Source: an uncultured Planctomycetia bacterium
GTDB taxonomy: Bacteria > Omnitrophota > Gorgyraeia > Tantalellales > Tantalellaceae
Length of the DNA: 64,000 bases
Assembly (NCBI GenBank): GCA_964527555.1
Contig: CAZGOG010000004.1
Coordinates: 10,593 to 74,592 of the forward strand
Direction of reading: 5' to 3'
This document shows, in pieces, positions 25,139-50,970 of this stretch. The position numbers and the translations under genes are program-made. A model generated the notes under the pieces. The model was not told the origin of the DNA. It ran no database searches and saw only the letters and a list, made by a program, of their open reading frames with translations. How positions within the stretch are numbered: position 1 is the first letter of the stretch; every line of letters starts with the position of its first letter.

Positions 25139-25214
25139 GGGGCTGTAGCTCAGCTGGGAGAGCGCGTGCATGGCATGCATGAGGTCAGGGGTTCGATCCC
25201 CCTCAGCTCCACCA
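25139..25214 (+). tRNA. tRNA-Ala (anticodon GGC) with G3:U70 identity pair and encoded CCA
   Basis: The acceptor GGGGCTG pairs with CAGCTCC, giving a G3:U70 pair. The anticodon loop ATGGCAT gives GGC. The T-arm is AGGGG-TTCGATC-CCCCT. Confidence 0.9.
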
Positions 25215-28129: not shown

Positions 28130-28134
28130 AGCCG

Positions 28135-36535: not shown

Positions 36536-37336
36536 ATGACACATCTCGATAAATTAGAAAATCAAAGTATTTATATCATAAGGGAAGCGTACAGTCAGTT
36601 CAGAAAAGTGGCTATGCTCTGGTCAATCGGTAAAGATTCTACCGCTCTTCTTTGGCTGGTAAGAAAAGCATTCCTGGGAAAAATACCTTTCCCAGTGGTC
36701 CATATCGATACTACCCATAAATTTCAGGAAATTTACGATTTTCGCGATAAATACGCGAAAGAATGGGGACTTAACCTCATAACCGCGAAAAATGAGGAAG
36801 CCCTTGAAAAAGGGGTAGGGCCCGAGACGGGGAAGTTCCAGTGCTGTACGGAACTTAAGACAAACGCTTTGAAAAAAGCCATAGATAAATACGGTTTCAA
36901 AGCCTTGTATCTGGCTATTAGAAGGGATGAGCACGGCATCAGGGCGAAAGAAAGGATCTTTTCACCGAGAGATGAGGATTTTGAATGGGATTATAAAGAC
37001 CAGCCCCCGGAATTATGGGACCAGTATAAGTCGAAAGCCAGGGAAGAGGAGCACTTAAGGGTGCATCCTCTTTTGGGCTGGAGGGAAATAGACGTCTGGG
37101 AATATGTGAAGCGCGAGAACCTGCCTATAACGTCTCTATATTTCGCGAAAAGCGGCCAGAGATACAGGAGTATAGGATGCGAATGTTGCTGCAGGCCTAT
37201 AGATTCGGTTGCGGCGACGGTGGAAGAGGTTGTCGAAGAATTAAAGGTCACCAAGATCTCGGAAAGAAGCGGACGCGCCCAGGATAAGGAATCCGCATAC
37301 ATGATGCAGAAACTCAGGTCCCTGGGGTATATGTAA
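36536..37336 (+). CDS. cysD: sulfate adenylyltransferase subunit 2 (PAPS-reductase-like fold)
   Basis: MLWSIGKDSTALLWL is a PP-loop SGGKDS-like motif. The protein is 266 aa. Confidence 0.8.
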   Translation: MTHLDKLENQSIYIIREAYSQFRKVAMLWSIGKDSTALLWLVRKAFLGKIPFPVVHIDTTHKFQEIYDFRDKYAKEWGLNLITAKNEEALEKGVGPETGKFQCCTELKTNALKKAIDKYGFKALYLAIRRDEHGIRAKERIFSPRDEDFEWDYKDQPPELWDQYKSKAREEEHLRVHPLLGWREIDVWEYVKRENLPITSLYFAKSGQRYRSIGCECCCRPIDSVAATVEEVVEELKVTKISERSGRAQDKESAYMMQKLRSLGYM

Positions 37337-37348
37337 AACGGGCAATTT

Positions 37349-38575
37349 ATGGAAACACTTAACTTTGTAATAGTGGGGCATATTGATCACGGTAAATCCA
37401 CTCTTATCGGGAGGCTCCTTTATGACACCGACTCTCTTGCCCCGGACAAGATAGAAGAGATAAGGAACTCCTCGGAAGAATTGGGGAAAGATACTGAGTT
37501 TGCTTATCTACTGGATCACCTGGAAGAAGAGCGCCAGCAAGGCATCACCATCGAGACGACACAGGTCTTTTTCAAATCCGGCGGACGGGAATATGTCATT
37601 ATCGATGCTCCCGGTCATGTGGAGTTCGTCAAAAATATGATCACAGGCGCTTCACACGCCGAGGCGGCGGTTCTTTTAATCGATGCCGCTGAAGGCGTTA
37701 AGGAACAGACGAAACGGCATACTTACCTCCTGTCACTATTAGGGATAAAACAGATAATAGTGCTTATTAACAAGATGGACCTAGTTGGGTACAGTGAGGA
37801 GACGTTTAGATCTATCAAGGAAAAAATAGAGAAGTTCCTTGCCGGTATCGGCATGGAAGGCGCTTTTTACATACCGATCTCCGCTTTAAAGGGTGAAAAC
37901 GTCACAAAAACGTCAAAAGAAATACCTTGGTATAAAGGCCCCGCTTTCTTGGGATCCCTTAGCTCGCTTAAAGTGGAAAAGTCCGAAGAGGAAAAGCCGC
38001 TTCTTTTTCCTGTCCAGGATGTGTATAAGATCGAAGATAAAAGAGTGACCGTAGGCAGAGTCGAAGCAGGCGTCATTAAAAAAGGCCAGACCATAAAGAT
38101 CCTACCGCACGAACAGACTACCAAGGTAAAGACCATAGAGAAATATCCTTTCGTTGTAAATGAAAGCTCAAGCGGAGAAAGCATAGGAATTACTACCGAG
38201 GATAGGGTTTTCTTGGACCGCGGTGATATCGTGTGCGCCGAAGGGGAAGAGCCGCGTTTTACGGATTCTTTTTATGCGAATATAGTATGGCTTTCAAAAA
38301 AGGATTTCAGTAAAGATGAAAAACTGATCATTAAGTGCGCCACCCAGGAGACCACCTGCAGGATCGAAGAGATTAAAGAAAGAATAAATTCTTCTACTCT
38401 TGAAGTCGTTGAGGAAAACGCTAGCGGACTTAAAAATCTCGAAGTAGGAGAAGTTTTAATAAAGACCAAAAAACCCATAGCGGTTAAAACGTTTAGTGAT
38501 GTCCAGGAACTGGGCAGGTTCGTGCTTGTCAAGGACGAGAACACCTGCGCCGGCGGTATCGTAACTTCTTTATAA
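37349..38575 (+). CDS. cysN: sulfate adenylyltransferase subunit 1 (GTPase), no fused APS-kinase domain
   Basis: GTPase motifs [14 protein letters not shown] and NKMD. The 408-aa protein ends after the beta-barrel domains. Confidence 0.8.
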
Positions 38576-38594
38576 ACAAGGGAAACTACTAAAA

Positions 38595-39887
38595 ATGGCT
38601 AGAGTGGTAATCATAGGACTTGATGGCGTTCCGTACGGTCTTCTTGAGGATTTTGCAAAGCGGGGTATCATGCCCAGGACGAAAGAAGTCATTGAGAGGG
38701 GGACTTTCAGGAAAATGGCTTCTTCGATACCCGAGATCTCCTCGGTTGCCTGGTCTTCTGTCATAACAGGCAAAAATCCTGCCGAGCACGGGATCTTCGG
38801 GTTTACTGATTTCCCGGATAATACTTACAGGCTATCATTTCCCAATTTCAGTCAGCTGAAGACCGAGACTTTTTGGGAGAAGGATGCTTCCAGTCGTCAC
38901 ATCATCGTAAACGTCCCTTCCACTTATCCGGCACGCCGGCTTAACGGTATCCTGATATCGGGTTTTGTGGCTTTGGATCTTGAAAGAGCCGTTTATCCGA
39001 CTGCCATGCTCGCTCACCTGGAGAAAATGGATTACAGGGTCGATGTCGATTCCGCTAAAGCGCATAAATCGCTGGAGCTTTTTCTTAAGGACCTTAATAT
39101 CACCAACGAAACGCGTATAGGCGCTTACAGGCATCTCTGGGAAGAAGAATGGGACACCTTCATGTTTGTTTTTACCGGCAGTGATCGTCTCATGCACTTT
39201 TTGTGGGATGCTTACGAGGATGAGAGGCATGAGTTTCATCAGGAATTTGTGAATTATTTTCGAAGGATAGATATGATAATAGGTGAAATAGCCTCTAAGA
39301 TGAAAGAGGATGACTCGCTAATAATGCTTTCTGATCATGGGTTTGAAAGATTGGAAAAGGACGTGTATGTGAACCGCATCTTAAAGGAAGCCGGTTTTCT
39401 TAAATTGATGGAGGGGCAAGCGGTAAGTTTCAGCAGTATTGACCATGGCACTAGAGCATTTGCGCTTGACCCGGCTCGCATATATATAAATCTGGAAGAG
39501 AGGTATCCCCGCGGCAGCGTCCCTTTGAGAATGAGGGAGAAGGTTACGGAAGAAGTGGAAGAACTATTCAATAATTTCGAAATAGAGGGTGAAAAAGTCA
39601 TAAAGAGCCTTTACAGGAAGGAAGAGATATATTCCGGGACTTATTTTGACAGGGCTCCGGATCTTGTTCTTGTTGGAGAAAAAGGTTTTAACTTAAAGGC
39701 GGCTATAAACGCCGAAGAGGTCTGGTCAAAAGGTATTTTTACGGGCAAGCATACACAAGAGGATGCGTTTCTTCTGGTTAACAGGAAATGTAATACTGAT
39801 ATTATTCCAGAAAACGTCACAGTAAGCGATGTTGTCGGTGTTATAGACAGATTAAAGGAGGCAATAAATGAGCGGCAAGTTGCATAA
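38595..39887 (+). CDS. type I phosphodiesterase / nucleotide pyrophosphatase family (alkaline phosphatase superfamily) protein
   Basis: IIGLDG...IPEISSVAWSSVITGKNPAEHGI matches the Phosphodiest family pattern. Confidence 0.6.
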   Translation: MARVVIIGLDGVPYGLLEDFAKRGIMPRTKEVIERGTFRKMASSIPEISSVAWSSVITGKNPAEHGIFGFTDFPDNTYRLSFPNFSQLKTETFWEKDASSRHIIVNVPSTYPARRLNGILISGFVALDLERAVYPTAMLAHLEKMDYRVDVDSAKAHKSLELFLKDLNITNETRIGAYRHLWEEEWDTFMFVFTGSDRLMHFLWDAYEDERHEFHQEFVNYFRRIDMIIGEIASKMKEDDSLIMLSDHGFERLEKDVYVNRILKEAGFLKLMEGQAVSFSSIDHGTRAFALDPARIYINLEERYPRGSVPLRMREKVTEEVEELFNNFEIEGEKVIKSLYRKEEIYSGTYFDRAPDLVLVGEKGFNLKAAINAEEVWSKGIFTGKHTQEDAFLLVNRKCNTDIIPENVTVSDVVGVIDRLKEAINERQVA

Positions 39888-41415
39888 TGCGGAATGTACA
39901 TGCTGGAACTGTCCTGCGATAAACTTGGCAGGTAAGGTGGATTTCAGGGCCTGTGGCCAGTCCACGGCTGAATTTGACAAGCGTAAAGACACCTCTTCCG
40001 AAAGTCACATCATGGCTGAGTGTAAGAGGCGTCCCGAGCTCGGGCTTTTTGACCCGACGAGCATCACTTTCAGGGAGTGTCCCGAATGGGTCGAAAGCCC
40101 TTACGGATATCTGCTTAAGAACATGCGCGTCATGATACTGGGGATGGACGGGTATCTGGGGTGGACACTGGCGCTCTGGCTTTCTAAACTGGGATGCAGG
40201 GTAAGCGGAGTGGATAATTACAGCCGGCGCAATTGGGTGAAAGAGAGAGGTTCTCATACGGTTGTTCCTGTAGCTACCATGACGGACCGGCTTCATGTCG
40301 CAAAGGAGGTGCTGGACACGACCATAGATTTCCGTGAACTTGATATAATGGACAGGGAGCTATTAAAGGAGTTCATCGAAGAAATAAAACCGGAGGCGAT
40401 CGTCCATTACGGCGAGTGCCCCAGTGCGCCGTACAGTATGATAGATTTTGAGCATGCAAGCTATGTCCAGAAGAACAATGTCATAGGGACGCTGGGATTA
40501 CTTTTCACCATGCACGAGGCTGTTCCAGAGACTTCTCTCATAAAACTCGGTACGATGGGTGAGTACGGTACGCCTCTTACCGGCCGGCCGCTTTTTGAGG
40601 GGATGTTTCCCGCCGATGCCGTTCTTAGCTGGCAGGGACGCCAGTGGAGCATGGGAGGGGAACTTACCCCGCGCGACCCGGTTTCTTTTTATCACTGCTC
40701 TAAAGTGCAGGATACTTTCAACGTCTATGAAGCGTGTAAATACTGGTGGCTGCGTTCCTATGACGTAATGCAGGGCGTTATATACGGGGTTCATACCGAT
40801 CAGGTAAGCGCCGATCCGCGTCTCAGGACGCGTTTTGATATAGACGAATGTTTCGGCACGGTTATAAACCGTTATGTTGCCCAGGCGGTTATAGGATTCC
40901 CGCTTACGCTTTACGGGGCGGGAGAACAGGTAAGGGGTTTTATCGCTTTGGAAGAAGCGATGAGATGCATGACTAGACTCATTGCCAAACCTCCCGAACC
41001 GGGACAGTACGGGGTTGTGAACCAGATGTCGGGGTACTGCAGCATGAGGAGGCTTGCTGAGACGGTCAAAAAAGTCGGGGAGAAGGAATTCGGACTCAAG
41101 GTAAAGATCCAGCGCGTTGAGAACCCGCGGGTTGAAGCTGATAGGCACCCCTTTGAGCCCATCTTCAAGAACCTTCCCGAAGAGTTCGGATTCGTTCAGA
41201 AAAATATGCTCGAGGAAGAGATTTACAGGATGTTTAAACTTCTTACCCAGCGTAGGATAAAAGGAAGGATCGAGGAGAAAAAGCACCTTATCCTGCCTAA
41301 GACCTGGTGGTCAGGCGTGAAGAAAGAAGTTGAAAGACTGGAACTTATTGAAAACGGAAATGATATCAAAAAGGTGAAAGCCGAAGATGGCGAAACCGTT
41401 AGCGTTGGCAGATAA
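39868..41415 (+). CDS. sqdB: UDP-sulfoquinovose synthase (SqdB/SQD1 family) with ~85-aa Cys-rich N-terminal extension
   Basis: A strong aggagg SD lies 6 nt before the ATG at 39868. From MRVMILGMDGYLGW onward the protein shows HYGECPSAPYSMID, KLGTMGEYGTP, SFYHCSK, GFPLTLYGAGEQVRGF and NPRVEADRH. These are the SQD1/SqdB signature blocks. Confidence 0.8.
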   Translation: MSGKLHNAECTCWNCPAINLAGKVDFRACGQSTAEFDKRKDTSSESHIMAECKRRPELGLFDPTSITFRECPEWVESPYGYLLKNMRVMILGMDGYLGWTLALWLSKLGCRVSGVDNYSRRNWVKERGSHTVVPVATMTDRLHVAKEVLDTTIDFRELDIMDRELLKEFIEEIKPEAIVHYGECPSAPYSMIDFEHASYVQKNNVIGTLGLLFTMHEAVPETSLIKLGTMGEYGTPLTGRPLFEGMFPADAVLSWQGRQWSMGGELTPRDPVSFYHCSKVQDTFNVYEACKYWWLRSYDVMQGVIYGVHTDQVSADPRLRTRFDIDECFGTVINRYVAQAVIGFPLTLYGAGEQVRGFIALEEAMRCMTRLIAKPPEPGQYGVVNQMSGYCSMRRLAETVKKVGEKEFGLKVKIQRVENPRVEADRHPFEPIFKNLPEEFGFVQKNMLEEEIYRMFKLLTQRRIKGRIEEKKHLILPKTWWSGVKKEVERLELIENGNDIKKVKAEDGETVSVGR

Positions 41416-41704
41416 TAGTTTTGAAAACGAAGTTATAGCTTCCAAGCAGCCAGTTTTGGTGGATTTTTGGGCATCTTGGTGCCCTCCGTGCAAAATGGTG
41501 GAGCCCACGATCGGGGAACTTGCACAAGAGATCAGCGATAAGGTGAAGATAACAAAGATAAACGTTGACCAGAATCCTAAAAGCGCATCTGACTATAATA
41601 TAATGGGTGTTCCGACCTTTATTCTTTTTAAAGACGGCAAGGAGGTCACCAGGCGGGTAGGCGCTCAATCCAAGGCGCAGCTTTTAGATATGCTAGAGAC
41701 ATAA
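41387..41704 (+). CDS. trxA: thioredoxin (CPPC active site)
   Basis: VLVDFWASWCPPCKM... in a 105-aa protein. It overlaps the sqdB 3-prime end by 29 nt. Confidence 0.85.
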   Translation: MAKPLALADNSFENEVIASKQPVLVDFWASWCPPCKMVEPTIGELAQEISDKVKITKINVDQNPKSASDYNIMGVPTFILFKDGKEVTRRVGAQSKAQLLDMLET

Positions 41705-41719
41705 ATACTAGACAAACAA

Positions 41720-42670
41720 ATGCGGAAGAAAGTTTTTATAACAGGAGGCGCCGGCTTCATCGGCGCCAATTTTGTCAAATACCTCCTGGATAAAGGAGGG
41801 GTTGATATAACTGTCTATGATAACCTTTCGGCATGTTCCGGGGCAAATTTAACGGCAGCTATAGAAGATTCCGCGAGGAAAGGGAAAGTAAAACTCGTTG
41901 AAGGTGATATTCTAGATACTACTGAATTATATAAATCTATTAAAGGACATAACGCGGTAGTTCATCTCGCTGCGCATACACAGGTGGTGGAGTCCCTTAA
42001 GGACCCCAAAGAGAATTTTGAAATTAATGCCACGGGTACTTTGAATATTCTGGAAGCCGCCCGGGCAAATAAGATAAAAAGGTTTGTTTTTGCTTCTTCT
42101 AATGCGGCAGTTGGGGAGCAAATCCCTCCAATAAATGAACGGATGGTACCAGCGCCCCTTTCCCCGTACGGAGCGACCAAGCTGCACGGGGAGGCATTAT
42201 GCTCGGCGTATTTTCATTCCTATGATATGGAGACTATATCTCTTCGTTTCGCGAATGCTTACGGGCTGTATTCGAAGCATAAGACGTCAGTGGTGGCGAA
42301 ATTTTTAAAGAAATCTAAAAAAGCGCAAAAACTTGAGATATACGGCGACGGCAAGCAAACCCGCGATTTTATCCACGCGCGTGACATCGCGCAGGCGATA
42401 TTTTTATCTCTTAAGACTTATAATAATAACCGTAAAAATTCGGTTTTTGGCGGAGTTTTTCAGATTGCTACGGGAGAAGAGACCAGGATAACCGATTTAG
42501 CTAAAATGGTAAATGCACTCAAAGGTAAAGAGAGGGGGAATGTAAAGTTTTCTCCTCCCAGAAAAGGCGAGATAAGGAAGAATTTCTCGGATATCTCAAA
42601 AGCGAAAAGACTTCTAAAGTTCTGCCCTTCCATTACCCTGGAAGAAGGTATAAGTGAGCTTTTTGCCTAG
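41720..42670 (+). CDS. NAD-dependent epimerase/dehydratase (extended SDR)
   Basis: Rossmann motif GGAGFIGANF, catalytic YGATK and 316 aa. Confidence 0.75.
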   Translation: MRKKVFITGGAGFIGANFVKYLLDKGGVDITVYDNLSACSGANLTAAIEDSARKGKVKLVEGDILDTTELYKSIKGHNAVVHLAAHTQVVESLKDPKENFEINATGTLNILEAARANKIKRFVFASSNAAVGEQIPPINERMVPAPLSPYGATKLHGEALCSAYFHSYDMETISLRFANAYGLYSKHKTSVVAKFLKKSKKAQKLEIYGDGKQTRDFIHARDIAQAIFLSLKTYNNNRKNSVFGGVFQIATGEETRITDLAKMVNALKGKERGNVKFSPPRKGEIRKNFSDISKAKRLLKFCPSITLEEGISELFA

Positions 42671-42701
42671 CACGGCAAAAAGAAAAGCGTTGGAGCCGGC
42701 C

Positions 42702-43673
42702 ATGGATATGAACACTGCGAAAGATAAGAAGTTTTTACTCTCCGTTGTAGTGCCAGTCTGTAACGAGGAAGAGAACCTTAAAGGGTTTCATAGGTGCTTA
42801 AGAGACGTTCTTGACAAGACGGGTGAAAGGACTGAGATTGTTTTTGTCGATGACGGTAGCCGTGATTCCAGCCTTGAAATAATGAAGGAGCTTTACAAAG
42901 AGGATCCCGACATAGTCATAGTGCATCTTTCCAGAAATTTCGGTCACCAGCTTGCCATTACCGCAGGGATAGATCATGCCAGAGGTGACGCGGTAGTTAC
43001 GATCGATGCGGATCTTCAGGACCCGCCGGAACTTATCCTTAAGATGCTCGAGGAATGGAAAAAGGGATACGATGTTGTCAATGCTGCCAGAGACGCGCGG
43101 GAGGGCGAGGGAATTATCAAACTTTTTACCGCTTCAGCGTTTTACTGGGTGATACAGAGGATCACGCATGTGGATATGTCTATGAGCGAGGGAGATTTTC
43201 GTCTGATTGACAGGAAAGTCGCTCAAGGGCTGAAGAGAATAAAGGAGAGACACCGTTATATACGGGGTTTGGTTTCCTGGATGGGGTATAAGCAAACGGT
43301 AATAAAATATAAGCGCGACAGGAGGGCAAAGGGGAAACCAAAATATTCATTATGGAAATCTTTTATCCTGGCTGTTGATGCGATTACCACCTTTTCATAT
43401 ATTCCGCTACGCATAGCTGTCGTAACGGGATTTTTTCTGTCGTTCTGCGCATTGGTAATGGGAATTTATATAGTATTTTTGAAGGTTTTTACAAGCCAAA
43501 TAAGGGTCCCCGGCTATGCGGCCTTGTTTACAGCCACGGTGTTTCTGGGTGGAGTGCAGCTAATTGTTCTGGGTATTGTAGGAGAGTATTTGGGGCGCTG
43601 TTTTGAAGAAACCAGGCAAAGGCCGCTGTATTATGTCAGGGATTTGATTCGAAGGGACTCTTGTGAAAAATAA
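42702..43673 (+). CDS. GT2 polyprenol-phosphate glycosyltransferase (ArnC/GtrB/DPM1-like) with C-terminal TM helices
   Basis: LSVVVPVCNEEENL...VFVDDGSRDSS and a DAD-type motif, with two C-terminal TM helices. The start was set at MDMNTAKDKKF; the track ORF begins at 42654. Confidence 0.75.
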   Translation: MDMNTAKDKKFLLSVVVPVCNEEENLKGFHRCLRDVLDKTGERTEIVFVDDGSRDSSLEIMKELYKEDPDIVIVHLSRNFGHQLAITAGIDHARGDAVVTIDADLQDPPELILKMLEEWKKGYDVVNAARDAREGEGIIKLFTASAFYWVIQRITHVDMSMSEGDFRLIDRKVAQGLKRIKERHRYIRGLVSWMGYKQTVIKYKRDRRAKGKPKYSLWKSFILAVDAITTFSYIPLRIAVVTGFFLSFCALVMGIYIVFLKVFTSQIRVPGYAALFTATVFLGGVQLIVLGIVGEYLGRCFEETRQRPLYYVRDLIRRDSCEK

Positions 43674-43693: not shown

Positions 43694-44425
43694 ATGCTTA
43701 GGACTCTCAATGAAAAAAAAAATAGAGGCACCAGATTTGATACCCAAAGGTCTAAAGATTTTTTCAATAAACTAGGGAAAAATTATGTCAAGTCTGCCAA
43801 AGCTGAATACGACCGCATATACAGCCGTACCGCCAGTATCATAGAGCCATATCTAAAAGGAAAAGTCTTGAATCTGGGGAGCGGCGGGATAGATCTTCCA
43901 GATTCAAGGGGTATGACCCTGCAAGTTTCACTAGATACCTCAGAGGAACTGATTAAATGTCACAAGCTTGGAGAAGGGCGCGAAGCTATTTGCGCGGAGG
44001 CAAGAGATCTCCCTTTCGAAGGGGAATCGTTTGATGTGATTGTGGCTCATTTTTCCCTGCATCATTTTGCTCAAGAATCGGTCTTTCTCACGTTCGAATA
44101 CGTTCGAGAGGTTTTTCGAAGTATAAAAAGAATTATAAAAAAAAGGGGCAAGGTAATAATAGCGGAAAACACCGTCAATGATGCTGTCGCTTTTTTTGAG
44201 AAACTGGGCTACCCTGCGCTAAGGTCAATATTAAGCAGATCAAAACGACCTCCTGTTTATTTATTTTCCGTGAGGACGCTGAACGCCTTTTTAAAAGAGG
44301 CGGGATTCAGGCTTTTAAATTTCACAAGTTTCAAAGAGGAGGCAAAACCGCTTCTACTGCCTTTTTCTATTCCAAGAAGCGTGAACCCTATGTCCATATC
44401 TGTATTTATCGGGGAAAAACAATGA
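43694..44425 (+). CDS. class I SAM-dependent methyltransferase (1 of 4 in tandem)
   Basis: Motif I reads VLNLGSGG. Confidence 0.65.
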   Translation: MLRTLNEKKNRGTRFDTQRSKDFFNKLGKNYVKSAKAEYDRIYSRTASIIEPYLKGKVLNLGSGGIDLPDSRGMTLQVSLDTSEELIKCHKLGEGREAICAEARDLPFEGESFDVIVAHFSLHHFAQESVFLTFEYVREVFRSIKRIIKKRGKVIIAENTVNDAVAFFEKLGYPALRSILSRSKRPPVYLFSVRTLNAFLKEAGFRLLNFTSFKEEAKPLLLPFSIPRSVNPMSISVFIGEKQ

Positions 44426-45249
44426 ATACTGAAAGTACTGGGCTTAAGAGGCTGGACTCCGAAGAGAGATTTCATGACAGCTATGCGGATTCGCTAAAAG
44501 CGGAAGAGCTTTTGGTCGATGAAAGCTTTGAAGCCCTTACTGCGCAGGAGAATAAGTTTGTACTGGAAGAGTTTGGTTCACTTTGCGGTAAGTCATTACT
44601 TGATCTTGGCTGCGGCGCGGGAGAATCCGCCGTTTATTTCGCAAAGAAAGGCGCCAAAGTCACGGCGGTAGATATTTCAAGCGGGATGCTGAGGCGAGCG
44701 GAAGAGCTGGCCGGCATTCACGGCGTAAGTATCGAAACTTTGCAACTGGACGCCGGGGACATTATGTCGTTGGGGAGTCGATTTGATTACATCTACGGAA
44801 ACGGCGTTTTGCATCATATGGATTTCGAGAACATGATAGCTGACGTTAAAAAAGTGCTATCTCCCGGCGGTAAAGCCGTCTTTATAGAGCCGTTTGCCCA
44901 CAATTTTATAATTAACATATACCGCAGGCTAGCGAAAGATGTGCGCAGTCCGCAGGAAGAGCCGCTTAAGTTTAGGGATATAAAATTCTTCAGGAGACAT
45001 TTTAAAGAGGTAAAGCATAAAGAATTCTGGTTTTTTTCTTTGTTGGTTTTTGTCGTTTTGTTTCTTAAGGGGATACATCCCTCAAGGGAGCGTTATTGGA
45101 AGTATGTTATCAGACATGCTGAGGAATATAAACAAATGTTTCTTATTTTAAGTTCTTTGGACAGAGTGATATTAAAAGTGTTCCCCTTTCTTGGGAGATT
45201 TTGTTGGAATACGGTAGTTGTTCTGGAAGAGCCGTACCATGAGAAGTGA
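44422..45249 (+). CDS. class I SAM-dependent methyltransferase (2 of 4)
   Basis: Motif I LLDLGCGAGE and motif post-I VTAVDIS. Confidence 0.7.
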   Translation: MNTESTGLKRLDSEERFHDSYADSLKAEELLVDESFEALTAQENKFVLEEFGSLCGKSLLDLGCGAGESAVYFAKKGAKVTAVDISSGMLRRAEELAGIHGVSIETLQLDAGDIMSLGSRFDYIYGNGVLHHMDFENMIADVKKVLSPGGKAVFIEPFAHNFIINIYRRLAKDVRSPQEEPLKFRDIKFFRRHFKEVKHKEFWFFSLLVFVVLFLKGIHPSRERYWKYVIRHAEEYKQMFLILSSLDRVILKVFPFLGRFCWNTVVVLEEPYHEK

Positions 45250-45964
45250 TACATATAAATGGCTTGATGATATTCAAGACAACCATTGGTGGCTTAATGC
45301 CAGGAAAGAGATCGTCACGAATCTATTTGAGAAATATTCGGATTCTGATTTGTTGAATATTCTGGAGATAGGTTTTGGGACCGGTGGAGTTTTGGAAGCG
45401 GTATCAAGGTATGGTCAAGCGTGGGGTATGGATAGTGCTGAGGCTATAAAGTATGCCCAAAAGCGGTATCCCGACACTCGTCTTTTTGAGGGCAGATTAC
45501 CCGATGAAGTACCTTTTCCGGAAAACTCGGTCGATAGAGTCATAATGCTTGATGTGCTTGAGCATATTGAGGATGACTCTTTATCTCTGAAAAAAATAGC
45601 GGGTTTACTTCGGCCTGGAGGAATGCTTTTTTTGACGGTTCCAGCATTTAGTTTTTTATGGGGCAAGCATGATATGGATGCAATGCATAGAAGAAGGTAC
45701 AGCCGTAGAGAAATCATCCAGAAACTAAAAGGGGCAGGGTTTGATATAGTAAAATGCAGTTATTTTAATATGTTTTTATTCTTTCCGATAGCTCTTGCAA
45801 AGATGAGTAACAAAATAAGGACTAGTTCTGTGGAAAAAAAAGAATTTCCGCAAGTGATAGAGAATTTATTTTATAACATTTTTAGAAGCGAAAAGATTTT
45901 TCTTGAGAGATTCAATTTGCCCTTTGGCATATCAATAATCTGTATCGTTCAAAAAAATAAATGA
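45218..45964 (+). CDS. class I SAM-dependent methyltransferase (3 of 4)
   Basis: Motif I ILEIGFGTGG. Confidence 0.7.
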   Translation: MFWKSRTMRSDTYKWLDDIQDNHWWLNARKEIVTNLFEKYSDSDLLNILEIGFGTGGVLEAVSRYGQAWGMDSAEAIKYAQKRYPDTRLFEGRLPDEVPFPENSVDRVIMLDVLEHIEDDSLSLKKIAGLLRPGGMLFLTVPAFSFLWGKHDMDAMHRRRYSRREIIQKLKGAGFDIVKCSYFNMFLFFPIALAKMSNKIRTSSVEKKEFPQVIENLFYNIFRSEKIFLERFNLPFGISIICIVQKNK

Positions 45965-46602
45965 AAATGAATAATATAGAGAAAAAAATCTTATCTTTAT
46001 GTAAAAGGGGTAAAATCTTCAGATTTTTTACTAGACTTAAATTTTCTCTGATACCTTTTAATAAGATAAGCGAGCTATTGCCGGATGAAGGTCAGATTTA
46101 TGAACTTGGTTCAGGGTACGGGTTTGAGGCAGCTTATCTGGCTTTAGATAAACCGGGAAGAGTTGTTACCGGGATTGATATAGATAAAAAACGCGTTGAA
46201 ACAGCTAAAAATATCACAGAAAAAGTGTCTAATCTAAGATTCTCATGTGCGGATATAAAAGAGGTAGATCTTTCCGAGTCTAACGGTATATTGATGGTTA
46301 GTTTCCTGCATCATTTGCAATACCCGGATCAGGTGGCTCTAATAAAGAAGTGCTACGATTCTTTAACAGCGAATGGGACATTACTTATTTTAGATCCGGT
46401 TAATCATCCTCCGTTTAAAAATTTCATGAACTGGTTAAGTGACTGGCTATTGTATCCGTTCTCTGATAAGGCTTTTTTACGTTCGAAAGATGATCTGGTG
46501 GATTTGGTAGAGTCAGCCGGTTTTGACGCGCGGGGTGAGATAGAGAAAAGTAGCGGCTGGGGACTATTTTCTTATGCGCTTGTTGTGGGGAAGAAGCTAT
46601 GA
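45961..46602 (+). CDS. class I SAM-dependent methyltransferase (4 of 4)
   Basis: Motif I IYELGSGYGF. Confidence 0.65.
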   Translation: MKMNNIEKKILSLCKRGKIFRFFTRLKFSLIPFNKISELLPDEGQIYELGSGYGFEAAYLALDKPGRVVTGIDIDKKRVETAKNITEKVSNLRFSCADIKEVDLSESNGILMVSFLHHLQYPDQVALIKKCYDSLTANGTLLILDPVNHPPFKNFMNWLSDWLLYPFSDKAFLRSKDDLVDLVESAGFDARGEIEKSSGWGLFSYALVVGKKL

Positions 46603-48236
46603 AAAAGGCAAATTTAAGAGGAGCAACTATCGCATTAATGATATTCATTCTTGTAATAAGTCTGGCCTATTACGGCGCTTATTACAACAAGCTGGCGTAT
46701 CCCGTTAAGGATTACGGCTGTTTGCTTTCAGGCGGGGCGAGGGTTTCTTCCGGACAGATGCCTTATATCAATTTTTTCTCTTATTATCCGCCGTTACGTT
46801 ATCTAGTGTTGGGGGGATGGTTTAAAATGTTGGGAGTTTCGGTGGAATCCTCTCAATTACTTTTAGCTTTCTTGTTAACTCTTTCTAATCTTTTGCTTTT
46901 TTTGGTTGCTTGCAGATTTCTGCCCAGGATCTTAGCTTTGATCCCGGTGATCATTCATCTAATAATGCCGGGACCATGGTGGAAAGTCTGGTTTATGCTT
47001 TCCGTGTTAACGGGTCTTTTGTTTATTTTGAGGTATATTGAAAGACCCGATAAACTGCGCGCTTCTCTAGCGGGTTTTGCATGCGGTATTATGATATGGA
47101 TAAGGCAGGATATAGGATGTTATCTTCTGCTTACACTGGCGGTTATTTTCGTAATAACATATCTAAAGAAAACTCCGCTAAGGAATTTTATTTACTGCGT
47201 TTCAGGTGGGATAGCAAGCGGCATGACATTTATCTTTTATTACATGCTAAGAGGCGGCAATATAGTTGATTTTTTCAGGGATACCCTATGGACCGTTTAT
47301 ATCACCAGGCAGGCTGCCGGTGATGCTGCGCGTTTCTGGGTCTATCCCAATACTTTGTTCGGCATTGCAGGAATTCTGTTTATGTTCATTTTCGCTTTTA
47401 TCATATATAAGAGAAGGGAAGATATGACACTTTTTACCCGTTTGTGTGCTTTATTGATCATGACGGGTTTTTGCTTTTTCCATATGCAGATAGGCAGTTT
47501 CAAGTATTATAGGTTCCCGCAGGATCAGGCGTTAATGTATATAATTATGGTGTTTATCGGATTAGAGACATACCGGCTTATGGCGGGTAAAACAAATAAG
47601 ATGCTTGTGAGAGTAAGCTCTTCCTTGGTTCTTGTATTTATAATTTCCGGCATTTCCTTTTATTCTTATTATACTTTCTTTGCCCTAAGTAAAAGCGGTT
47701 ACTTTGCTTACACGGGTATTTTACCGTACTTTAAGAAAAACTGGCAAAAGACAAATATAGAACGCATGGGTAATGTCATGATTAAACGGGAAAAAGCCAT
47801 GGCGTTTAAGAATGCGATTAAGGCGATCGACAGCGCCGCGGAAGTCAATGAAGATGTTTTCTATGGCAGTAATGCTTTTTTGGCTTTTCTTTCCGCCCAT
47901 CCCACACCGGCAAGGGAGGATGTAGTGTACTTTCTTTTTGCCGATAAAAGCGTTATGCGGGATTTTCTGGAAAGGGCAAAAGAAAAAGCTCCAAAAGTTG
48001 TTGTTTTATCGGCGGTAGATCGCCGGATCGCAAGACGTAATCCCGAAGAAAATATTAGGCCGGTTCTTGATTTTGTTAAGAATAACTATGATTTTTCCGA
48101 GAAAGTTGGCAGATATTACGTTTTTGTTAAGGCTGAAAACCCTGATAGGATTGAGACGGAAAAGCGTCTTAACAGTCTATTCTTTGGAGGCGGGAAGAAA
48201 GAGAAATCAGCCAGGGCGAAGCATGATTATGAATAA
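46599..48236 (+). CDS. polytopic membrane protein with GT-C-like architecture (candidate ArnT/GtrC-type periplasmic glycosyltransferase)
   Basis: About 370 aa containing 10 or more predicted TM helices, then a soluble C-terminal domain of about 170 aa. The assignment is from architecture only. Confidence 0.35.
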   Translation: MKKANLRGATIALMIFILVISLAYYGAYYNKLAYPVKDYGCLLSGGARVSSGQMPYINFFSYYPPLRYLVLGGWFKMLGVSVESSQLLLAFLLTLSNLLLFLVACRFLPRILALIPVIIHLIMPGPWWKVWFMLSVLTGLLFILRYIERPDKLRASLAGFACGIMIWIRQDIGCYLLLTLAVIFVITYLKKTPLRNFIYCVSGGIASGMTFIFYYMLRGGNIVDFFRDTLWTVYITRQAAGDAARFWVYPNTLFGIAGILFMFIFAFIIYKRREDMTLFTRLCALLIMTGFCFFHMQIGSFKYYRFPQDQALMYIIMVFIGLETYRLMAGKTNKMLVRVSSSLVLVFIISGISFYSYYTFFALSKSGYFAYTGILPYFKKNWQKTNIERMGNVMIKREKAMAFKNAIKAIDSAAEVNEDVFYGSNAFLAFLSAHPTPAREDVVYFLFADKSVMRDFLERAKEKAPKVVVLSAVDRRIARRNPEENIRPVLDFVKNNYDFSEKVGRYYVFVKAENPDRIETEKRLNSLFFGGGKKEKSARAKHDYE

Positions 48237-49389
48237 AACTAAATTAATTCTTGTTATAACTCTTAGTATGATCTTTGTGTTTTTATGGGCAAAGAGCACC
48301 AGCTGGGTTCGTCTGGCTAAAGCAGATTTTTATATTAAGGAAGGCCAGACGGATAAGGCCCTCAAGGTTTATGAGAGTATTTTTCGTAAGGAAGAAATAT
48401 TATCCGAAAGCGGGACAGTTCGCACGTTTTTTAAATTAAAACCGCAGAAAGAGTATAATGTCGGTTCTTTTTTGGCTGATTATTATAAAAATAACGGCGA
48501 TCTTGAGAAAGAAATAAAATGCCTGAAAAGACTCGCGCAGTTAAAACCAAATGAGGAAAATAGTTATCTCAGGCTTTATGATATTTATGTAAGTAAAGAT
48601 GATATCAGGGAAGCAACGAAGGTGGTTGCCTGTTATGAAAAGGCCAATAGTCGCATTTTCCCGAGAGAAATGCCCCGCGATTTACTTTGGGAATATAACC
48701 TGGGGAAAAGTTATTTGGATAAAGGCATGCTCGAAAAGGCTGAAAAATCATTCAAGTTTTGTCTTGAGAAAAACAGTAAATTCGCGGATGTATATTATTT
48801 ACTAGGCGCAGTTTACCAGAAAGAAGGGAGGAGGGAGGAGGCAATCGAAGAGTACCGGCAGGCTGTCAGCATCGCTCCGAACCACATGGGCTCATTGGTT
48901 GCTTTAAGCGGATTATATGAAAAGCCGGGTGCAGGTGAAGGCCAGTTTATAGAAAAGAGAATTGAGGAATTAACGCCTCCCGATAAGGCGGATATTAATT
49001 TTTCTGATAAGATTCAGCTTTTGGGGTATGATATCGGAATAGGCGCGGATAAAAGAGCGCTTTTTAAGTTCTGGTTTAAATGTTTGAGTGAAATAGACAG
49101 GGATTATTTGTGTGTGATCTATGTTAAAACAAAGGATCTGGATTTATTGCCGCCAAAACGAAAAAATATAGGATTTTTATGTTTTTCCGATAAAATAGCG
49201 GGAGGTACTTCAAACTGGCAGATAGGTGAAGTATATACGACTGAATTTAAAAGAAGAGTAAAGACAGAAAAATATCAGGTGATATTTTTTCTTAAAAGTT
49301 CCGGCGGTGAAGATTCTTCCCCGATGGTTTTAAGAAACACTGCCACAGGCGGAAGGAACGCGGATCTGGGGGTTATAAGGATTTTTTAA
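48223..49389 (+). CDS. membrane-anchored TPR-repeat protein
   Basis: An N-terminal TM (MIMNKTKLILVITLSMIFVFLW) and several TPR-like repeats. The start is an internal Met of track ORF 48067. Confidence 0.5.
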   Translation: MIMNKTKLILVITLSMIFVFLWAKSTSWVRLAKADFYIKEGQTDKALKVYESIFRKEEILSESGTVRTFFKLKPQKEYNVGSFLADYYKNNGDLEKEIKCLKRLAQLKPNEENSYLRLYDIYVSKDDIREATKVVACYEKANSRIFPREMPRDLLWEYNLGKSYLDKGMLEKAEKSFKFCLEKNSKFADVYYLLGAVYQKEGRREEAIEEYRQAVSIAPNHMGSLVALSGLYEKPGAGEGQFIEKRIEELTPPDKADINFSDKIQLLGYDIGIGADKRALFKFWFKCLSEIDRDYLCVIYVKTKDLDLLPPKRKNIGFLCFSDKIAGGTSNWQIGEVYTTEFKRRVKTEKYQVIFFLKSSGGEDSSPMVLRNTATGGRNADLGVIRIF

Positions 49390-49410: not shown

Positions 49411-50970
49411 ATGCAAGCTAAGAAGAGAAGAAGGATGTTTAAGGCGCTATTGGTAGGGACGGTATTTTCCTTTATCGGCATTGTGACTAACCAGCTTGGG
49501 GGAATAGGTCTTAAGGTAATGCTTGCGCGTCTCCTGGGGCCGGAAGAATTTGGTCTGGTGAACCTGAGTTTAGCCATACTGGTAGTTGTGACAAGTTTCA
49601 CCCTTATGGGATACCAGAACGGGGTCACGCGTTTTACTGCCTTTTACAAAGGACAGGGTGAAACGGGTAAAATCAAAACCACGATTCAAATTGTCTGGAA
49701 AATCATACTTCTTTCGTCATGTGCAGGGGGGCTTCTTGTTTATCTATTTTCCGGGAAGATGGCCGCAAGCGTTTTCCACGATCAGAAACTGATGCCGGTA
49801 TTAAAGATATTTGCTTTCGCCGTGCCCTTACTCGCTTTAAGCAGGGTGTTTAATGCGGGCCTGCGCGGGTTTAAAAAGATCCATCTTGTTATCATCACGG
49901 ACAGAATCTTGTGGCGGGTAATGCCTTTGGTATTAGTTGCGTTTCTCTTCCTGTTCTTTAATCTCGAGCTTAACGGTGTGGCATATTCATTTCTTATTAC
50001 TGTTGCTATGATGCTTATGGTATCGGCGATCTTTTTATATAGGGAAATCGTCTCTTACCCGAATAGTTTGGATAAAAAAACATGTTTAAGGGAAATAACC
50101 CAGTATTCATGGCCGGTAGCTCTGGTAGAAATCGGGAATAACTTAAAAACCAGGACCGACACACTTCTAATAGCGTTTTTCCTGGGGGCTTATGAAGTTG
50201 GTATATTTTCCGTGGCGCTTACCCTTGCCGCTTTTTTACACCTTTTTTTAAGTTCAATAGTTGTCATATTTAATCCGGTCGCTTCAGAGCTCTTTGGTGA
50301 GAATAATATGGCTGAGATAGGCAGGATCTTTTCGCTTGTCACAAAATGGCTTGTCTTATTGGCGCTTCCGATTTTACTATTCCTTATGTTTTTTCCCGGG
50401 ATAACGATTTCGGTTTTGTTTGGCGCCTCTTACAAAAGCGCGGCTCCCGCATTAGCTATTCTCGCATTTTGTTTTTTTGCAAAAACCGCTGTGGGGCCCA
50501 GTGGAGCTACGTTGCTTGCTATGGGGCATTCAAAGATTAACATGCTGATTTCTATTTCGACGCTTCTTGTCAGTATTTTCCTGTGTCTTTTGCTGATTCC
50601 AAGGTACGGGATAATCGGGGCGGCGATAGCAACAGGATCTGCTACTATATTCCAGCAGGCAAGCATGTTTGTTATGATGAGGAAATATATCGAAGTACAC
50701 TTTTTCAGAAAAAAACTGTTTTTTTATATCGGCTATTGTATTACGCTAAGCGCGATCTTTCGGATATCTTTAGGCAATTTCATGCATAACATATTAGGTC
50801 TTTTTGCACTTGGCGTATTGTTTTACGTTCTTGCCCTATATGGGGTATTAATCACCAAACAGCTGGAAAGAGATGATCTTGTCCTGATCGCCAGGTTTCG
50901 TCGGAAGATCAGGTCGAAAAGAAAATATTCCAACAAAACCCTGCAGGCTGGGGATAATAACTATATGTAG
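49411..50970 (+). CDS. wzx: Wzx-type polysaccharide flippase (MOP superfamily, Polysacc_synt)
   Basis: 519 aa and about 14 TM segments, with an N-terminus typical of O-unit flippases. Confidence 0.75.
   Translation: MQAKKRRRMFKALLVGTVFSFIGIVTNQLGGIGLKVMLARLLGPEEFGLVNLSLAILVVVTSFTLMGYQNGVTRFTAFYKGQGETGKIKTTIQIVWKIILLSSCAGGLLVYLFSGKMAASVFHDQKLMPVLKIFAFAVPLLALSRVFNAGLRGFKKIHLVIITDRILWRVMPLVLVAFLFLFFNLELNGVAYSFLITVAMMLMVSAIFLYREIVSYPNSLDKKTCLREITQYSWPVALVEIGNNLKTRTDTLLIAFFLGAYEVGIFSVALTLAAFLHLFLSSIVVIFNPVASELFGENNMAEIGRIFSLVTKWLVLLALPILLFLMFFPGITISVLFGASYKSAAPALAILAFCFFAKTAVGPSGATLLAMGHSKINMLISISTLLVSIFLCLLLIPRYGIIGAAIATGSATIFQQASMFVMMRKYIEVHFFRKKLFFYIGYCITLSAIFRISLGNFMHNILGLFALGVLFYVLALYGVLITKQLERDDLVLIARFRRKIRSKRKYSNKTLQAGDNNYM

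Follow-up and report, generated by a model that had tools for sequence, protein, structure and literature searches.

The closest described relatives of the enzyme at the center of this locus are the UDP-sulfoquinovose (UDP-SQ) synthases, known as SQD1 in Arabidopsis, SqdB in bacteria and Agl3 in Sulfolobus acidocaldarius, for which the in vivo mechanism of sulfur transfer has been described as still unknown (PMC4388408). In the 64-kb stretch of DNA analyzed here (the window), we found a SqdB homolog that shares with these enzymes the extended SDR fold, the GxxGxxG motif and residues T145, Y182, K186, H183 and M146/E148/Y149, and that likely has the same substrate, UDP-glucose, and the same product, UDP-SQ. 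For the window enzyme, as for Agl3, the context suggests a glycan and not a thylakoid lipid. The genes that follow also recall a known type of system, in which GtrB/ArnC/DPM1-type glycosyltransferases are combined with GT-C transfer (O-antigen glucosylation, L-Ara4N modification of lipid A and the archaeal AglD/AglJ steps): a GT2 with two C-terminal TM helices stands right after nucleotide-sugar genes, with a polytopic membrane protein and a flippase nearby. The point at which the window system departs from the known one is the source of sulfite.

Open reading frame and Pfam/NCBIfam profile checks recovered every gene named in the initial annotation, all on the + strand and at or near the positions assigned to them. 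They form a single operon, cysD-cysN-AP-[Cys4 domain-SqdB]-Trx-epimerase-GT2, at the head of a Wzx/Wzy surface-glycan locus, probably in an Omnitrophota genome:

36422..36450, + strand: sigma-70-like promoter match, TTGACG-17-TATAAT (11/12), within the 176-nt gap 5' of cysD; a consensus match only
36536..37336, + strand: CysD, sulfate adenylyltransferase small subunit, 266 aa (PF01507; NF003587, 354 bits versus a cutoff of 195)
37349..38575, + strand: CysN, sulfate adenylyltransferase GTPase subunit, 408 aa (TIGR02034, 368.8 bits versus 336.1)
38595..39887, + strand: AP, PF01663 phosphodiesterase-like, 430 aa, with Ser49 as nucleophile and a complete two-metal site
39868..40122, + strand: Cys4 domain, residues 1-85 of long-form SqdB, from alignments (no Pfam match)
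40123..41415, + strand: SQD1/SqdB-like extended SDR body (E = 5e-83 to SQD1, full length)
41387..41704, + strand: thioredoxin (Trx), WCPPC active site, 105 aa (TIGR01068, 121 bits versus 96.8)
41720..42670, + strand: UDP-hexose 4-epimerase-like (GalE-like) SDR, 316 aa; its best PDB relatives are epimerases
42654..43673, + strand: GT2 of the GtrB/ArnC/PgfS type (PF00535) with two C-terminal TM helices (256-274 and 291-309)

The promoter match is consistent with an operon start at cysD, and a CysD of the same 266-aa form stands ahead of the module at locus L091. Both cysD and cysN scored above their family cutoffs, and the phosphodiesterase-like gene, the overlapping thioredoxin, the epimerase and the polyprenol-phosphate GT2 were all present as initially described. 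CysN carries no APS-kinase domain (Pfam detected GTP_EFTU domains only), and the product of CysDN is therefore APS. The 64 kb encode no APS kinase, APS reductase or PAPS reductase, enzymes that the initial annotation had recommended looking for across the genome. An exosortase system lies upstream in the window.

The whole sqdB reading frame (39868-41415) overlaps the AP stop codon by 20 nt at its 5' start, and the thioredoxin gene overlaps the sqdB stop codon by 29 nt. At 515 aa, the protein is longer than the roughly 390 aa first assigned to it, and we take the 85 extra N-terminal residues to be translated because they are conserved. Its alignment with SQD1 of Arabidopsis (1QRR/1I24; E = 5e-83) runs the full length, the four SqdB motifs quoted at the outset are all in the translation, and T145, M146, E148, Y149, Y182, H183 and K186 were invariant in an alignment of long and short forms. 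The protein is a genuine SQD1-family enzyme, in which the full catalytic set for oxidation and dehydration is kept. To call it an “unambiguous” SqdB was nevertheless an overstatement: it reached 423 bits with NF041015, the NCBIfam UDP-SQ synthase equivalog, under the cutoff of 575, and the HMM and phylogenetic check proposed with that assignment upheld the SQD1 family while placing the protein in a distinct monophyletic clade.

This long-form clade is discrete and is marked by an N-terminal four-cysteine domain. The extension and its four invariant cysteines were kept in 120 of the 120 best homologs, and long forms have a remodeled active-site loop (residues 237-268) with nine extra residues and H188 replaced by Q. 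In a neighbor-joining tree the long forms were monophyletic on a stem of length 0.32, with median identities of 67% between long forms, 52% between short forms and 44% between long and short. Long forms occurred in Omnitrophota, Chloroflexota, Planctomycetota, Fibrobacterota, Asgard, Bathyarchaeia, Thermoplasmatota and DPANN, and their loci span about ten phyla, reduced DPANN genomes included. The literature that we searched contained no description of the module, and long-form SqdB is a variant widespread among bacteria and archaea that has so far gone undescribed. The carriers are mostly anaerobes of sulfidic habitats.

An AP gene upstream and a noncanonical thioredoxin downstream flank long-form SqdB almost always, translationally coupled and across many phyla. 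AP adjoined it directly on the upstream side at 18 of the 20 genome loci that could be assessed, and Trx was directly downstream at 18 of 19. A search with AP retrieved 80 metagenome loci, of which 47 had a fused SqdB next to AP, and Trx followed directly in all 34 complete loci with a fused SqdB. Neither an AP match nor an adjacent Trx was found at any of 61 short-form loci, where the lone Trx match lay ~6 kb off on the opposite strand. Intergenic gaps in the module were mostly -32 to +20 nt, and pairwise distances of AP and SqdB were correlated (r = 0.86). The phosphodiesterase-like gene and the thioredoxin, initially treated as bystanders, are by these adjacency counts conserved core partners of the clade.

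This conserved upstream partner, AP, is by its sequence a predicted soluble enzyme of the alkaline-phosphatase superfamily, in the NPP/PhnA branch. D10, S49, N106, D197, H201, D247, H248 and H386 were invariant in the alignment, with S49 aligned to Thr64 of PhnA, and there were no invariant cysteines. In an AF2 model (pLDDT 90), the nearest folds were PhnA and NPPs (TM about 0.6), hydrolases that attack phosphorus and not sulfur. We propose APS as the substrate. The cysDN genes lay directly upstream of AP in the window and at L091, L135, L138 and L140, and cysN-AP pairs without any SqdB occurred at L137, L151, L162 and L163, which ties AP to APS, in the slot held by cysC or cysH in classical operons. 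However, cysDN adjoined AP at only about 20% of AP loci, and cysDN-AP loci without SqdB had no thioredoxin, so that AP may use APS otherwise, as a kinase analog, hydrolase or sulfotransferase, with Trx serving SqdB only.

In the Cys4 domain, C12, C15, C52 and C71 were invariant in alignments, C29, R27 and R55 nearly so, and R54 was invariant among fused forms. The domain had no Pfam match, and its AF2 model (pLDDT 77) matched neither a solved structure in the PDB nor a viral predicted one. Stand-alone Cys4 proteins of 70-94 aa were encoded directly 3' of AP genes that lack SqdB; similar ones also occurred in unrelated contexts (L092, L093 and L094). As a simple alternative, the four cysteines could hold a structural zinc. 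Of 18 module thioredoxins, all 17 with a readable active site had WC[PLSTV][PA]C and never WCGPC. A sulfotransferase is fused to the module Trx at L023, and sulfotransferases recur beside the module at L019, L020, L022 and in the window.

Reduction of sulfate S(VI) to a sulfonate takes exactly two electrons, which is what thioredoxin supplies in the chemistry of CysH enzymes. We tentatively propose, at somewhat below even odds, that AP, the Cys4 domain and Trx jointly deliver the sulfur donor, sulfite made from APS. CysDN would form APS; AP would split the phosphosulfate and hand its sulfo group on to a thiol, either in the Cys4 domain or in thioredoxin; and two electrons from thioredoxin would free sulfite beside the glucose-5,6-ene intermediate, so that a CysH-type APS reductase would be replaced and free sulfite avoided. 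The explanation as a whole, with a sulfo-sugar product and this mode of sulfur delivery added to the observed operon and clade, has in our judgment an even chance of being right. The module points to a novel route that feeds sulfur into a surface sugar.

It is also conceivable, though rather unlikely, that this is an ordinary sulfite-dependent SqdB supplied by a canonical APS/PAPS reductase encoded elsewhere in the genome, with Trx keeping a zinc-binding Cys4 domain reduced, repairing sulfitolysis damage or acting in redox regulation, and AP doing housekeeping around nucleotides (PAP, PPi or UDP-sugar hydrolysis). Catalytic residues identical to those of canonical enzymes, the downstream partners shared with short forms, the hydrolase folds nearest to AP and the missing Trx at cysDN-AP loci without SqdB all agree with this, but it leaves unexplained the translational coupling of AP and a noncanonical Trx to the long form, seen in >90% of its loci over about ten phyla and at no short-form locus, as well as the presence of the Cys4 domain after AP where SqdB is missing. 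AP might instead be a nonorthologous stand-in for APS kinase or PAP phosphatase, for PAPS supply or PAP removal, with the Cys4 domain and Trx, fused to SqdB or otherwise attached to it, as the actual sulfonucleotide-reducing part. The cysD-cysN-AP order mirrors the classical cysDNC operon, the sulfotransferases beside the module and the Trx fusion would fit, and AP-superfamily enzymes transfer phosphoryl groups via a phospho-Ser intermediate; AP is, however, nearest the diesterase and C-P hydrolase branch and not the monoesterases, and neither a nucleotide-binding fold in the 85-residue domain nor a phosphoryl donor is apparent, making this improbable.

The remodeled loop, with its nine extra residues and H188-to-Q change, could also mean that a different nucleophile, such as an enzyme-bound persulfide or hydrosulfide, is added to the glucose-5,6-ene. 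The product would be a 6-thio sugar that Trx releases or recycles and that adjacent methyltransferases possibly S-methylate. A dedicated Trx and Cys-rich domain, the sulfidic habitats of most carriers, which are anaerobes, and the frequency of methyltransferases as neighbors speak for this reading, which we nevertheless consider very improbable given the direct link to sulfate-activating cysDN, a GT2 and epimerase downstream as for canonical SqdB and a module without a sulfur-carrier or rhodanese gene. Least likely of all is an ordinary SQDG-like membrane sulfolipid made by a GT4 acting as an SqdX-type sulfoquinovosyltransferase, the polysaccharide genes being mere neighbors. SqdX is a GT4, a GT4 directly follows the module at L006 and L091 and the window encodes three; yet in the window it is an epimerase and a GtrB-type GT2, and no GT4, that are coupled directly to the module, the window GT4s match generic glycan-GT4 models only and the module stands in glycan loci that have flippases.

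We consider it probable that the product is UDP-SQ, possibly 4-epimerized to UDP-sulfofucose, and that the GtrB-type GT2 passes the sugar to polyprenyl phosphate for decoration of a glycan or protein outside the membrane; UDP-SQ or its C4 epimer is the probable product because a GT2 and an epimerase are common to short and long forms downstream. Epimerase homologs were present at 13 long-form and 11 short-form loci, and the window protein, whose best PDB relatives were UDP-Glc 4-epimerase 4ZRM, UDP-GlcA 4-epimerase 6ZL6 and WbgU, is a candidate UDP-SQ 4-epimerase. GT2 homologs were present at 10 long-form loci, at several directly after Trx, and at 17 short-form loci; the window GT2, with 266 bits to the PgfS model and 184 bits to an ArnC-type model, both under cutoffs, is a candidate polyprenyl-phosphate sulfo-sugar synthase. 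The genes further downstream are as follows:

43694..46602, + strand: four class-I SAM methyltransferases in tandem
46599..48236, + strand: polytopic membrane protein, 545 aa, about 9 TM helices and a soluble C-terminal domain (TM profile)
48223..49389, + strand: TPR protein (start as in the JGI call for L001)
49411..50970, + strand: Wzx-type flippase (PF13440, PF01943)
51016..51903, + strand: sulfotransferase-like protein (weak Sulfotransfer_3 match)
51934..53250, + strand: Wzy/O-antigen-ligase-like polymerase (PF04932)
53247..54341, + strand: GT4 glycosyltransferase, no match to the sulfolipid-synthase model
54343..55107, + strand: sulfotransferase (Sulfotransfer_1)
55120..56244, + strand: GT4 glycosyltransferase
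56294..57592, + strand: sulfatase-family protein (PF00884), no TM segment in a hydropathy scan

The 545-aa membrane protein had no Pfam or NCBIfam match and was not detectably similar to the PMT_2 protein of L090, a locus with a comparable GT2-methyltransferase-GT-C series; it is a candidate GT-C-like transferase that would use the lipid-linked sulfo-sugar. The flippase, GT4s and two sulfotransferases of the initial annotation were recovered, one sulfotransferase by the weak match only, while its plural polymerases came down to one evident Wzy-type gene. Its statement that no sulfolipid synthase is evident was borne out within the window, where none of the three GT4s matched such a model. Its proposal of sulfoquinovose in a surface glycan gained from the operon with cysDN, epimerase and GT2 at a Wzx/Wzy locus. 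We infer that the most natural reading is a surface glycan that carries a sulfo-sugar, because the SqdB-cysDN operon heads this locus, the epimerase and GT2 follow, the GT4s lack a sulfolipid-synthase match and an exosortase lies upstream, although an SqdX might be encoded elsewhere in the genome.

Compared with GtrB/ArnC/DPM1 systems, the window system differs in that its sugar would be a 6-sulfo hexose and its putative GT-C has no detectable family. Unlike SQD1, SqdB and Agl3, the window SqdB has an extra 85-residue Cys4 domain, a remodeled 153-178 loop with nine added residues and Q for H188, belongs to a separate clade ~44% identical to short forms, has AP and thioredoxin neighbors and falls under the equivalog cutoff; Arg101, essential in Agl3, is Pro here, as it is in 53 of the 61 short forms in our prokaryotic sample. 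With the assimilatory APS/PAPS reductase CysH and its thioredoxin there is a functional analogy only: CysDN activates sulfate and Trx would act as two-electron donor, AP takes the place next to cysDN in the operon, conserved cysteines could carry an S-sulfo intermediate and the four-Cys set recalls the [4Fe-4S] ligands of APS reductases, but no PAPS_reduct/ATP-PPase domain is present besides CysD, and the protein put forward as catalyst is of the alkaline-phosphatase fold and uses two metals and a Ser nucleophile. AP agrees with NPP and PhnA in family (PF01663), in fold (TM about 0.6) and in its two-metal ligands, its Asn and the position of the Ser/Thr nucleophile, but is only 15-17% identical to them, is cytoplasmic and reaches 21 bits versus 407 with the PhnA equivalog; and it differs from every characterized NPP/PhnA member in its genomic tie to cysDN, the Cys4 domain and SqdB.

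The genes between 36.5 and 63.2 kb are tightly spaced and all on one strand, and scans with Pfam and NCBIfam bore out the gene list of the initial annotation. The main point goes beyond that list: a gene of the alkaline-phosphatase superfamily (AP), an SqdB homologue carrying an N-terminal Cys4 domain and a thioredoxin (Trx) form a conserved module with a link to cysDN. The genes are arranged as follows.

36536-37336, + strand, cysD (NF003587, 354 bits against a cutoff of 195)
37349-38575, + strand, cysN without an APS-kinase domain (TIGR02034, 368.8 bits against a cutoff of 336.1)
38595-39887, + strand, AP, a soluble PF01663 "type I phosphodiesterase/nucleotide pyrophosphatase" (Pfam, 134 bits)
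39868-41415, + strand, SQD1/SqdB homologue of 515 aa (SQD1 alignment)
41387-41704, + strand, thioredoxin (TIGR01068, 121.3 bits against a cutoff of 96.8)
41720-42670, + strand, GalE-like SDR (Pfam/NCBIfam)
42654-43673, + strand, GT2 (PF00535)
between the GT2 and the next entry, + strand, four methyltransferases (Pfam/NCBIfam)
3' of the methyltransferases, + strand, 545-aa polytopic membrane protein without a family match
then in order, + strand, TPR protein, Wzx, sulfotransferase-like protein, Wzy, GT4, sulfotransferase, GT4
at the distal end, + strand, sulfatase-family protein, ADH/GFO fusion, UDP-GlcNAc 2-epimerase, radical-SAM protein, third GT4

cysD and cysN adjoin with a gap of 12 nt and both exceed their family cutoffs; because CysN has no APS-kinase domain, the product of CysDN should be APS. 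The AP gene overlaps that of the SqdB homologue by 20 nt, which in turn overlaps the Trx gene by 29 nt. There is a good sigma-70-like promoter match 5' of cysD, and an Rfam scan of the window found two tRNAs only, with no riboswitch ahead of cysD. No APS kinase, APS/PAPS reductase or CysQ is encoded within the whole 64-kb window, the sole PAPS_reduct protein being CysD itself (CysD model, 354 bits; CysH model, 70 bits). The same contig occurs as JGI Ga0309773_1000204 (145 kb), with near-identical contigs in several samples, and the nearest named homologues are from Candidatus Omnitrophota.

Upstream of cysD lie comEA/comEC and leuS and, farther up, an exosortase of the EpsH family with a DUF3485 protein (25623-27082, - strand), after which come a TPR protein and a sulfatase-TPR fusion of 609 aa (27203-29964, + strand). 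This succession of genes suggests that a PEP-CTERM/exosortase system accompanies the glycan locus. The two minus-strand open reading frames at 25.6-27.1 kb had been considered as APS kinase or CysQ and were rejected on being identified as the exosortase and the DUF3485 protein. Between tRNA genes at 20645-20729 and 25139-25211 lies the gene of a 1232-aa protein (21335-25033) whose C-terminal domain is a subtilase.

The SDR body of the SqdB homologue (residues 2-399) aligns end to end with residues 12-394 of Arabidopsis SQD1 (E = 5.3e-83), and the N-terminal GxxGxxG NAD site of the extended SDR fold is present as GMDGYLG. In SQD1 numbering, Thr145, Tyr182, Lys186, His183 and Met146/Glu148/Tyr149 are invariant or nearly so across 21 homologues with the Cys4 domain (long forms) and 61 canonical homologues without it (short forms). 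Mutagenesis of Sulfolobus Agl3 has shown that the corresponding Met, Glu and Tyr residues (M145, E147 and Y148) matter, that work being also the source of the catalytic roles, and that the R101A change abolishes activity (PMC4388408). The Arg101 position is occupied by Pro185 in all 21 long forms, and also by Pro in 53/61 short prokaryotic homologues, so that Arg101 is not family-defining in prokaryotes. The initial annotation had called the protein an unambiguous SqdB homologue. Its fold, catalytic residues and alignment with SQD1 uphold the family assignment; as to the equivalog, the protein scores 423.4 bits on the UDP-sulfoquinovose synthase model NF041015, still its best family match by far but under the cutoff of 575, and it falls in a separate clade. 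We dropped the idea of a thiol-based active site, built on the replacement of Gln100/Arg101 by Cys/Pro and on the Cys in SFYHCSK, given the Pro in most short forms; moreover, archaeal long forms have Ile in place of Cys184, and Val prevails at position 277.

Of more than 7,900 relatives in the database, the best 120 (72-86% identity) all keep the extra ~85 N-terminal residues where they are complete. Their conservation across phyla led us to reject Met85 as the true start of the protein. One of the long-form database homologues (P0245, 845 aa) carries an intein-like insertion of ~330 residues, beginning with Cys and ending with Asn, between KLG and TMGE, immediately ahead of the catalytic Thr. 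With each GTDB species represented by a single genome, the scan was cleanly bimodal, long forms matching from residue 1-7 at 59-83% identity and short canonical forms from about residue 86 at 40-48%. The long-form hosts are both bacterial (Dehalococcoidia, Anaerolineae, Thermodesulfobacteriota, Omnitrophota, Fibrobacterota and Planctomycetota) and archaeal (Thermoplasmatota, Woesearchaeota, Promethearchaeota and Bathyarchaeia). A neighbor-joining tree groups the 21 long forms as a single clade with a long stem, the median identity being 67% between long forms, 52% between short forms and 44% between the two. Long forms also have fixed substitutions (e.g., H188 to Q) and, in place of SQD1 residues 153-178, a remodelled invariant loop that is nine residues longer.

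Within the Cys4 domain, C12-x2-C15, C52 and C71 are invariant, C29, R27 and R55 nearly so, and R54 does not vary in the fused forms. The domain had no Pfam match; its model is a small beta-rich unit of moderate confidence (pLDDT 77), for which no structural neighbor was found in PDB or BFVD. Stand-alone Cys4 proteins are encoded directly 3' of AP genes with no SqdB nearby in loci L087, L088, L095 and L096-L100, which suggests that the domain is able to work with AP where SqdB is absent. Further stand-alone relatives occur away from AP genes (L092:548-790, L093:514-777 and L094:6001-6252), so the association with AP is not exclusive. One of these last three lies beside UbiA and an MCM helicase in an apparently mobile or viral element, another among very short phage-like genes and the remaining one within a methyltransferase/GT2/B12-radical-SAM glycan cluster.

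When the window proteins were compared with 83 independent loci by tblastn, an AP homologue was found directly 5' of the SqdB gene in 18/20 long-form loci with upstream DNA, and Trx directly 3' in 18 of the 19 with downstream DNA. Among the 61 short-form loci tblastn found no AP homologue and no adjoining Trx, the one Trx match being ~6 kb off on the opposite strand. Independent look-ups showed the same gene order in Chloroflexota, Nitrospinota and other Omnitrophota. In the reverse approach, a metagenome scan with a diverse AP alignment yielded 80 loci, 47 of which have a fused Cys4-SqdB gene immediately 3' of AP and 5 a stand-alone Cys4 gene (70-94 aa) in that place; Trx was present in every one of the 34 loci where SqdB was complete and the DNA continued beyond it. 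Intergenic distances within the module are mostly -32 to +20 nt. Pairwise distances of AP and SqdB are correlated (r = 0.86), as expected of a unit that would be co-inherited or co-transferred.

The Trx of the window has the active site WCPPC, not the canonical WCGPC, and where readable the module Trx motifs are WC[PLSTV][PA]C, mostly WCPPC and never WCGPC. The invariant residues of AP (D10, S49, N106, D197, H201, D247, H248 and H386) make up a complete two-metal site, with S49 aligned to the nucleophile T64 of phosphonoacetate hydrolase (PhnA). The AP model (pLDDT 90) has PhnA and the NPPs as its nearest structures, at only 15-17% identity, and AP scores 21 bits on the PhnA equivalog TIGR02335, under the 407-bit cutoff. 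By its PF01663 match, metal ligands, Asn, Ser nucleophile and fold, AP is a member of the NPP/PhnA branch of the superfamily. Other genes recur beside the module. A small Sulfotransfer_3 protein of ~200 aa is found at L019:22-672, L020:10466-11041 and L022:9905-10501, with no detectable relation to the window's own sulfotransferases; these recurrent neighbors had been considered as APS kinase or CysQ, which was rejected on their proving to be sulfotransferases. In a Planctomycetaceae MAG (L023:9533-10606) Sulfotransfer_3 is fused in frame to the WCPPC Trx of the module, and in a Bathyarchaeia MAG (L017:2672-4750) a 692-aa molybdopterin oxidoreductase (PF00384 and PF01568) is encoded directly 3' of Trx.

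The five-gene order of the window, cysD-cysN-AP-Cys4/SqdB-Trx, recurs in four other loci (L091, L135, L138 and L140), and cysN adjoins AP in 10 of the 50 AP loci with upstream DNA, AP standing where cysC or cysH stands in classical operons. At least four of these ten (L137, L151, L162 and L163) have no SqdB or Trx 3' and are polysaccharide loci with flippases, sulfatase-TPR proteins and further PF01663 paralogues. The existence of cysDN-AP operons without SqdB links AP to sulfate activation independently of SqdB. Between cysD and cysN, L163 has an inserted TauE/SafE-family transporter, and L138, L150 and L151 have an open reading frame of ~104 aa, the sole copy scanned (that of L151) matching DUF2061.

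SQD1-type chemistry needs sulfite, CysDN yields APS with its sulfur as S(VI), and APS is normally converted to sulfite by a CysH-type reductase with thioredoxin. How sulfur reaches UDP-sulfoquinovose synthase in vivo has been described as still unknown (PMC4388408). A reading that uses all parts of the module is that AP would act on APS, that the sulfo group would pass to a thiol on either the Cys4 domain or Trx, that Trx would provide two electrons and that sulfite would be set free at the SqdB active site. We put this forward tentatively, judging it somewhat less probable than an even chance, since it is weakened by several observations: AP has no invariant Cys, the enzymes nearest to it in structure attack phosphorus, the four cysteines of Cys4 may bind a structural zinc, Trx is missing as well where a cysDN-AP locus has no SqdB, and the genome may have a cysH outside the 64-kb window. 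Alternatively, AP may stand in for APS kinase or PAP phosphatase, and the small sulfotransferase beside the module, including its fusion to Trx, speaks for this. Another possibility is that the partners only protect or regulate an SqdB that is otherwise ordinary and sulfite-dependent.

If the sulfur-supply reading is taken further, AP, Cys4 and the noncanonical Trx would together be a new Trx-dependent APS reductase or sulfo-carrier that channels sulfite into the fused SqdB, a claim that we consider rather unlikely as it stands. Such a module would have spread by gene transfer among uncultured anaerobic bacteria, Asgard archaea, Bathyarchaeia, Thermoplasmatota and DPANN, and would supply their cell-surface glycans with sulfoquinovose or sulfofucose, needing neither free sulfite nor CysH.

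Clustering the neighbors of long-form loci showed homologues of the SDR at 41720-42670 in 13 and a GT2 in 10, in several directly 3' of Trx. Short-form loci have a GT2 in 17 and an SDR in 11, with only housekeeping genes as other neighbors. As the downstream partners are shared and the upstream or flanking partners differ, we infer that the long form makes the same kind of nucleotide sugar as the short form and that the novelty is in the sulfur input. The SDR is nearest to UDP-glucose, UDP-glucuronate and UDP-GalNAc 4-epimerases, and we speculate that it might be a UDP-sulfoquinovose 4-epimerase yielding UDP-sulfofucose. Sulfofucose is found in Thermoplasma N-glycans, with no biosynthetic pathway known (PMC12421959), and the module locus offers a candidate route to it.

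The GT2 has two C-terminal transmembrane helices (256-274 and 291-309), as in polyprenyl-phosphate transferases of the GtrB/ArnC type, and is under the equivalog cutoffs (PgfS, 266 bits against 500; ArnC-type, 184 against 529). The 545-aa protein, with about nine transmembrane helices and a soluble tail, resembles a GT-C in outline only. In a related Omnitrophota locus (L090) a GT2, a radical SAM protein, methyltransferases and a PMT_2 GT-C follow the module; the 545-aa protein was considered as a relative of that GT-C, and the comparison found no similarity. The sulfo-sugar would probably pass from UDP to polyprenyl phosphate, be flipped across the membrane in lipid-linked form and, outside, be transferred to the Wzx/Wzy-made polymer or to protein, with O-methylation and O-sulfation as further decorations. 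Sulfotransferases need PAPS, and the window has no APS kinase to supply it to its own. In a comparison with family models the three GT4s of the window match only generic GT4 models and none resembles a named sulfolipid synthase; a SqdX may be encoded elsewhere in the genome. The earlier proposal, that a surface polymer carries a sulfo-sugar, is plausible and partly supported, by the presence of SqdB, epimerase and GT2 in a Wzx/Wzy locus.

Two sulfatase-family proteins (56294-57592 and 28135-29964) lie within or beside this biosynthetic glycan locus. The first (432 aa) has no predicted transmembrane helix, and since a hydrolytic sulfatase would be odd within a sulfation locus, they may have a different role. 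The distal part also encodes an unusual 731-aa fusion of a zinc-type alcohol dehydrogenase to a GFO/IDH/MocA oxidoreductase (57595-59790) and a PTO1314-like radical-SAM protein (60933-61979); radical-SAM genes are likewise found 3' of the module in L090 and L091.

Few organosulfur compounds on Earth are as abundant as sulfoquinovose, and our literature search found no paper linking UDP-sulfoquinovose synthase with thioredoxin, an AP-family enzyme or these phyla. The three-gene module, which ranges from Omnitrophota to Asgard archaea and in the window and several relatives forms one operon with sulfate activation, makes the question of the enzyme's sulfur source directly testable. It also gives a first context for a large orphan PF01663 clade and a new small Cys4 domain, and predicts surface glycans bearing sulfo-sugars in many uncultured anaerobic lineages. 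If true, a sulfonucleotide-reducing system with an alkaline-phosphatase fold would amount to a new category of enzyme system.

That the module might work like an APS/PAPS reductase is offered as a hypothesis only; unlike CysH, it has no PAPS_reduct domain with a C-terminal catalytic Cys motif, CysD apart, in the 64 kb. The SqdB homologue itself, a family member by fold and catalytic residues, is expected to work like SQD1, SqdB and Agl3, and the long form differs from them in being a clade of its own, with an extra domain and with AP and Trx as partners.
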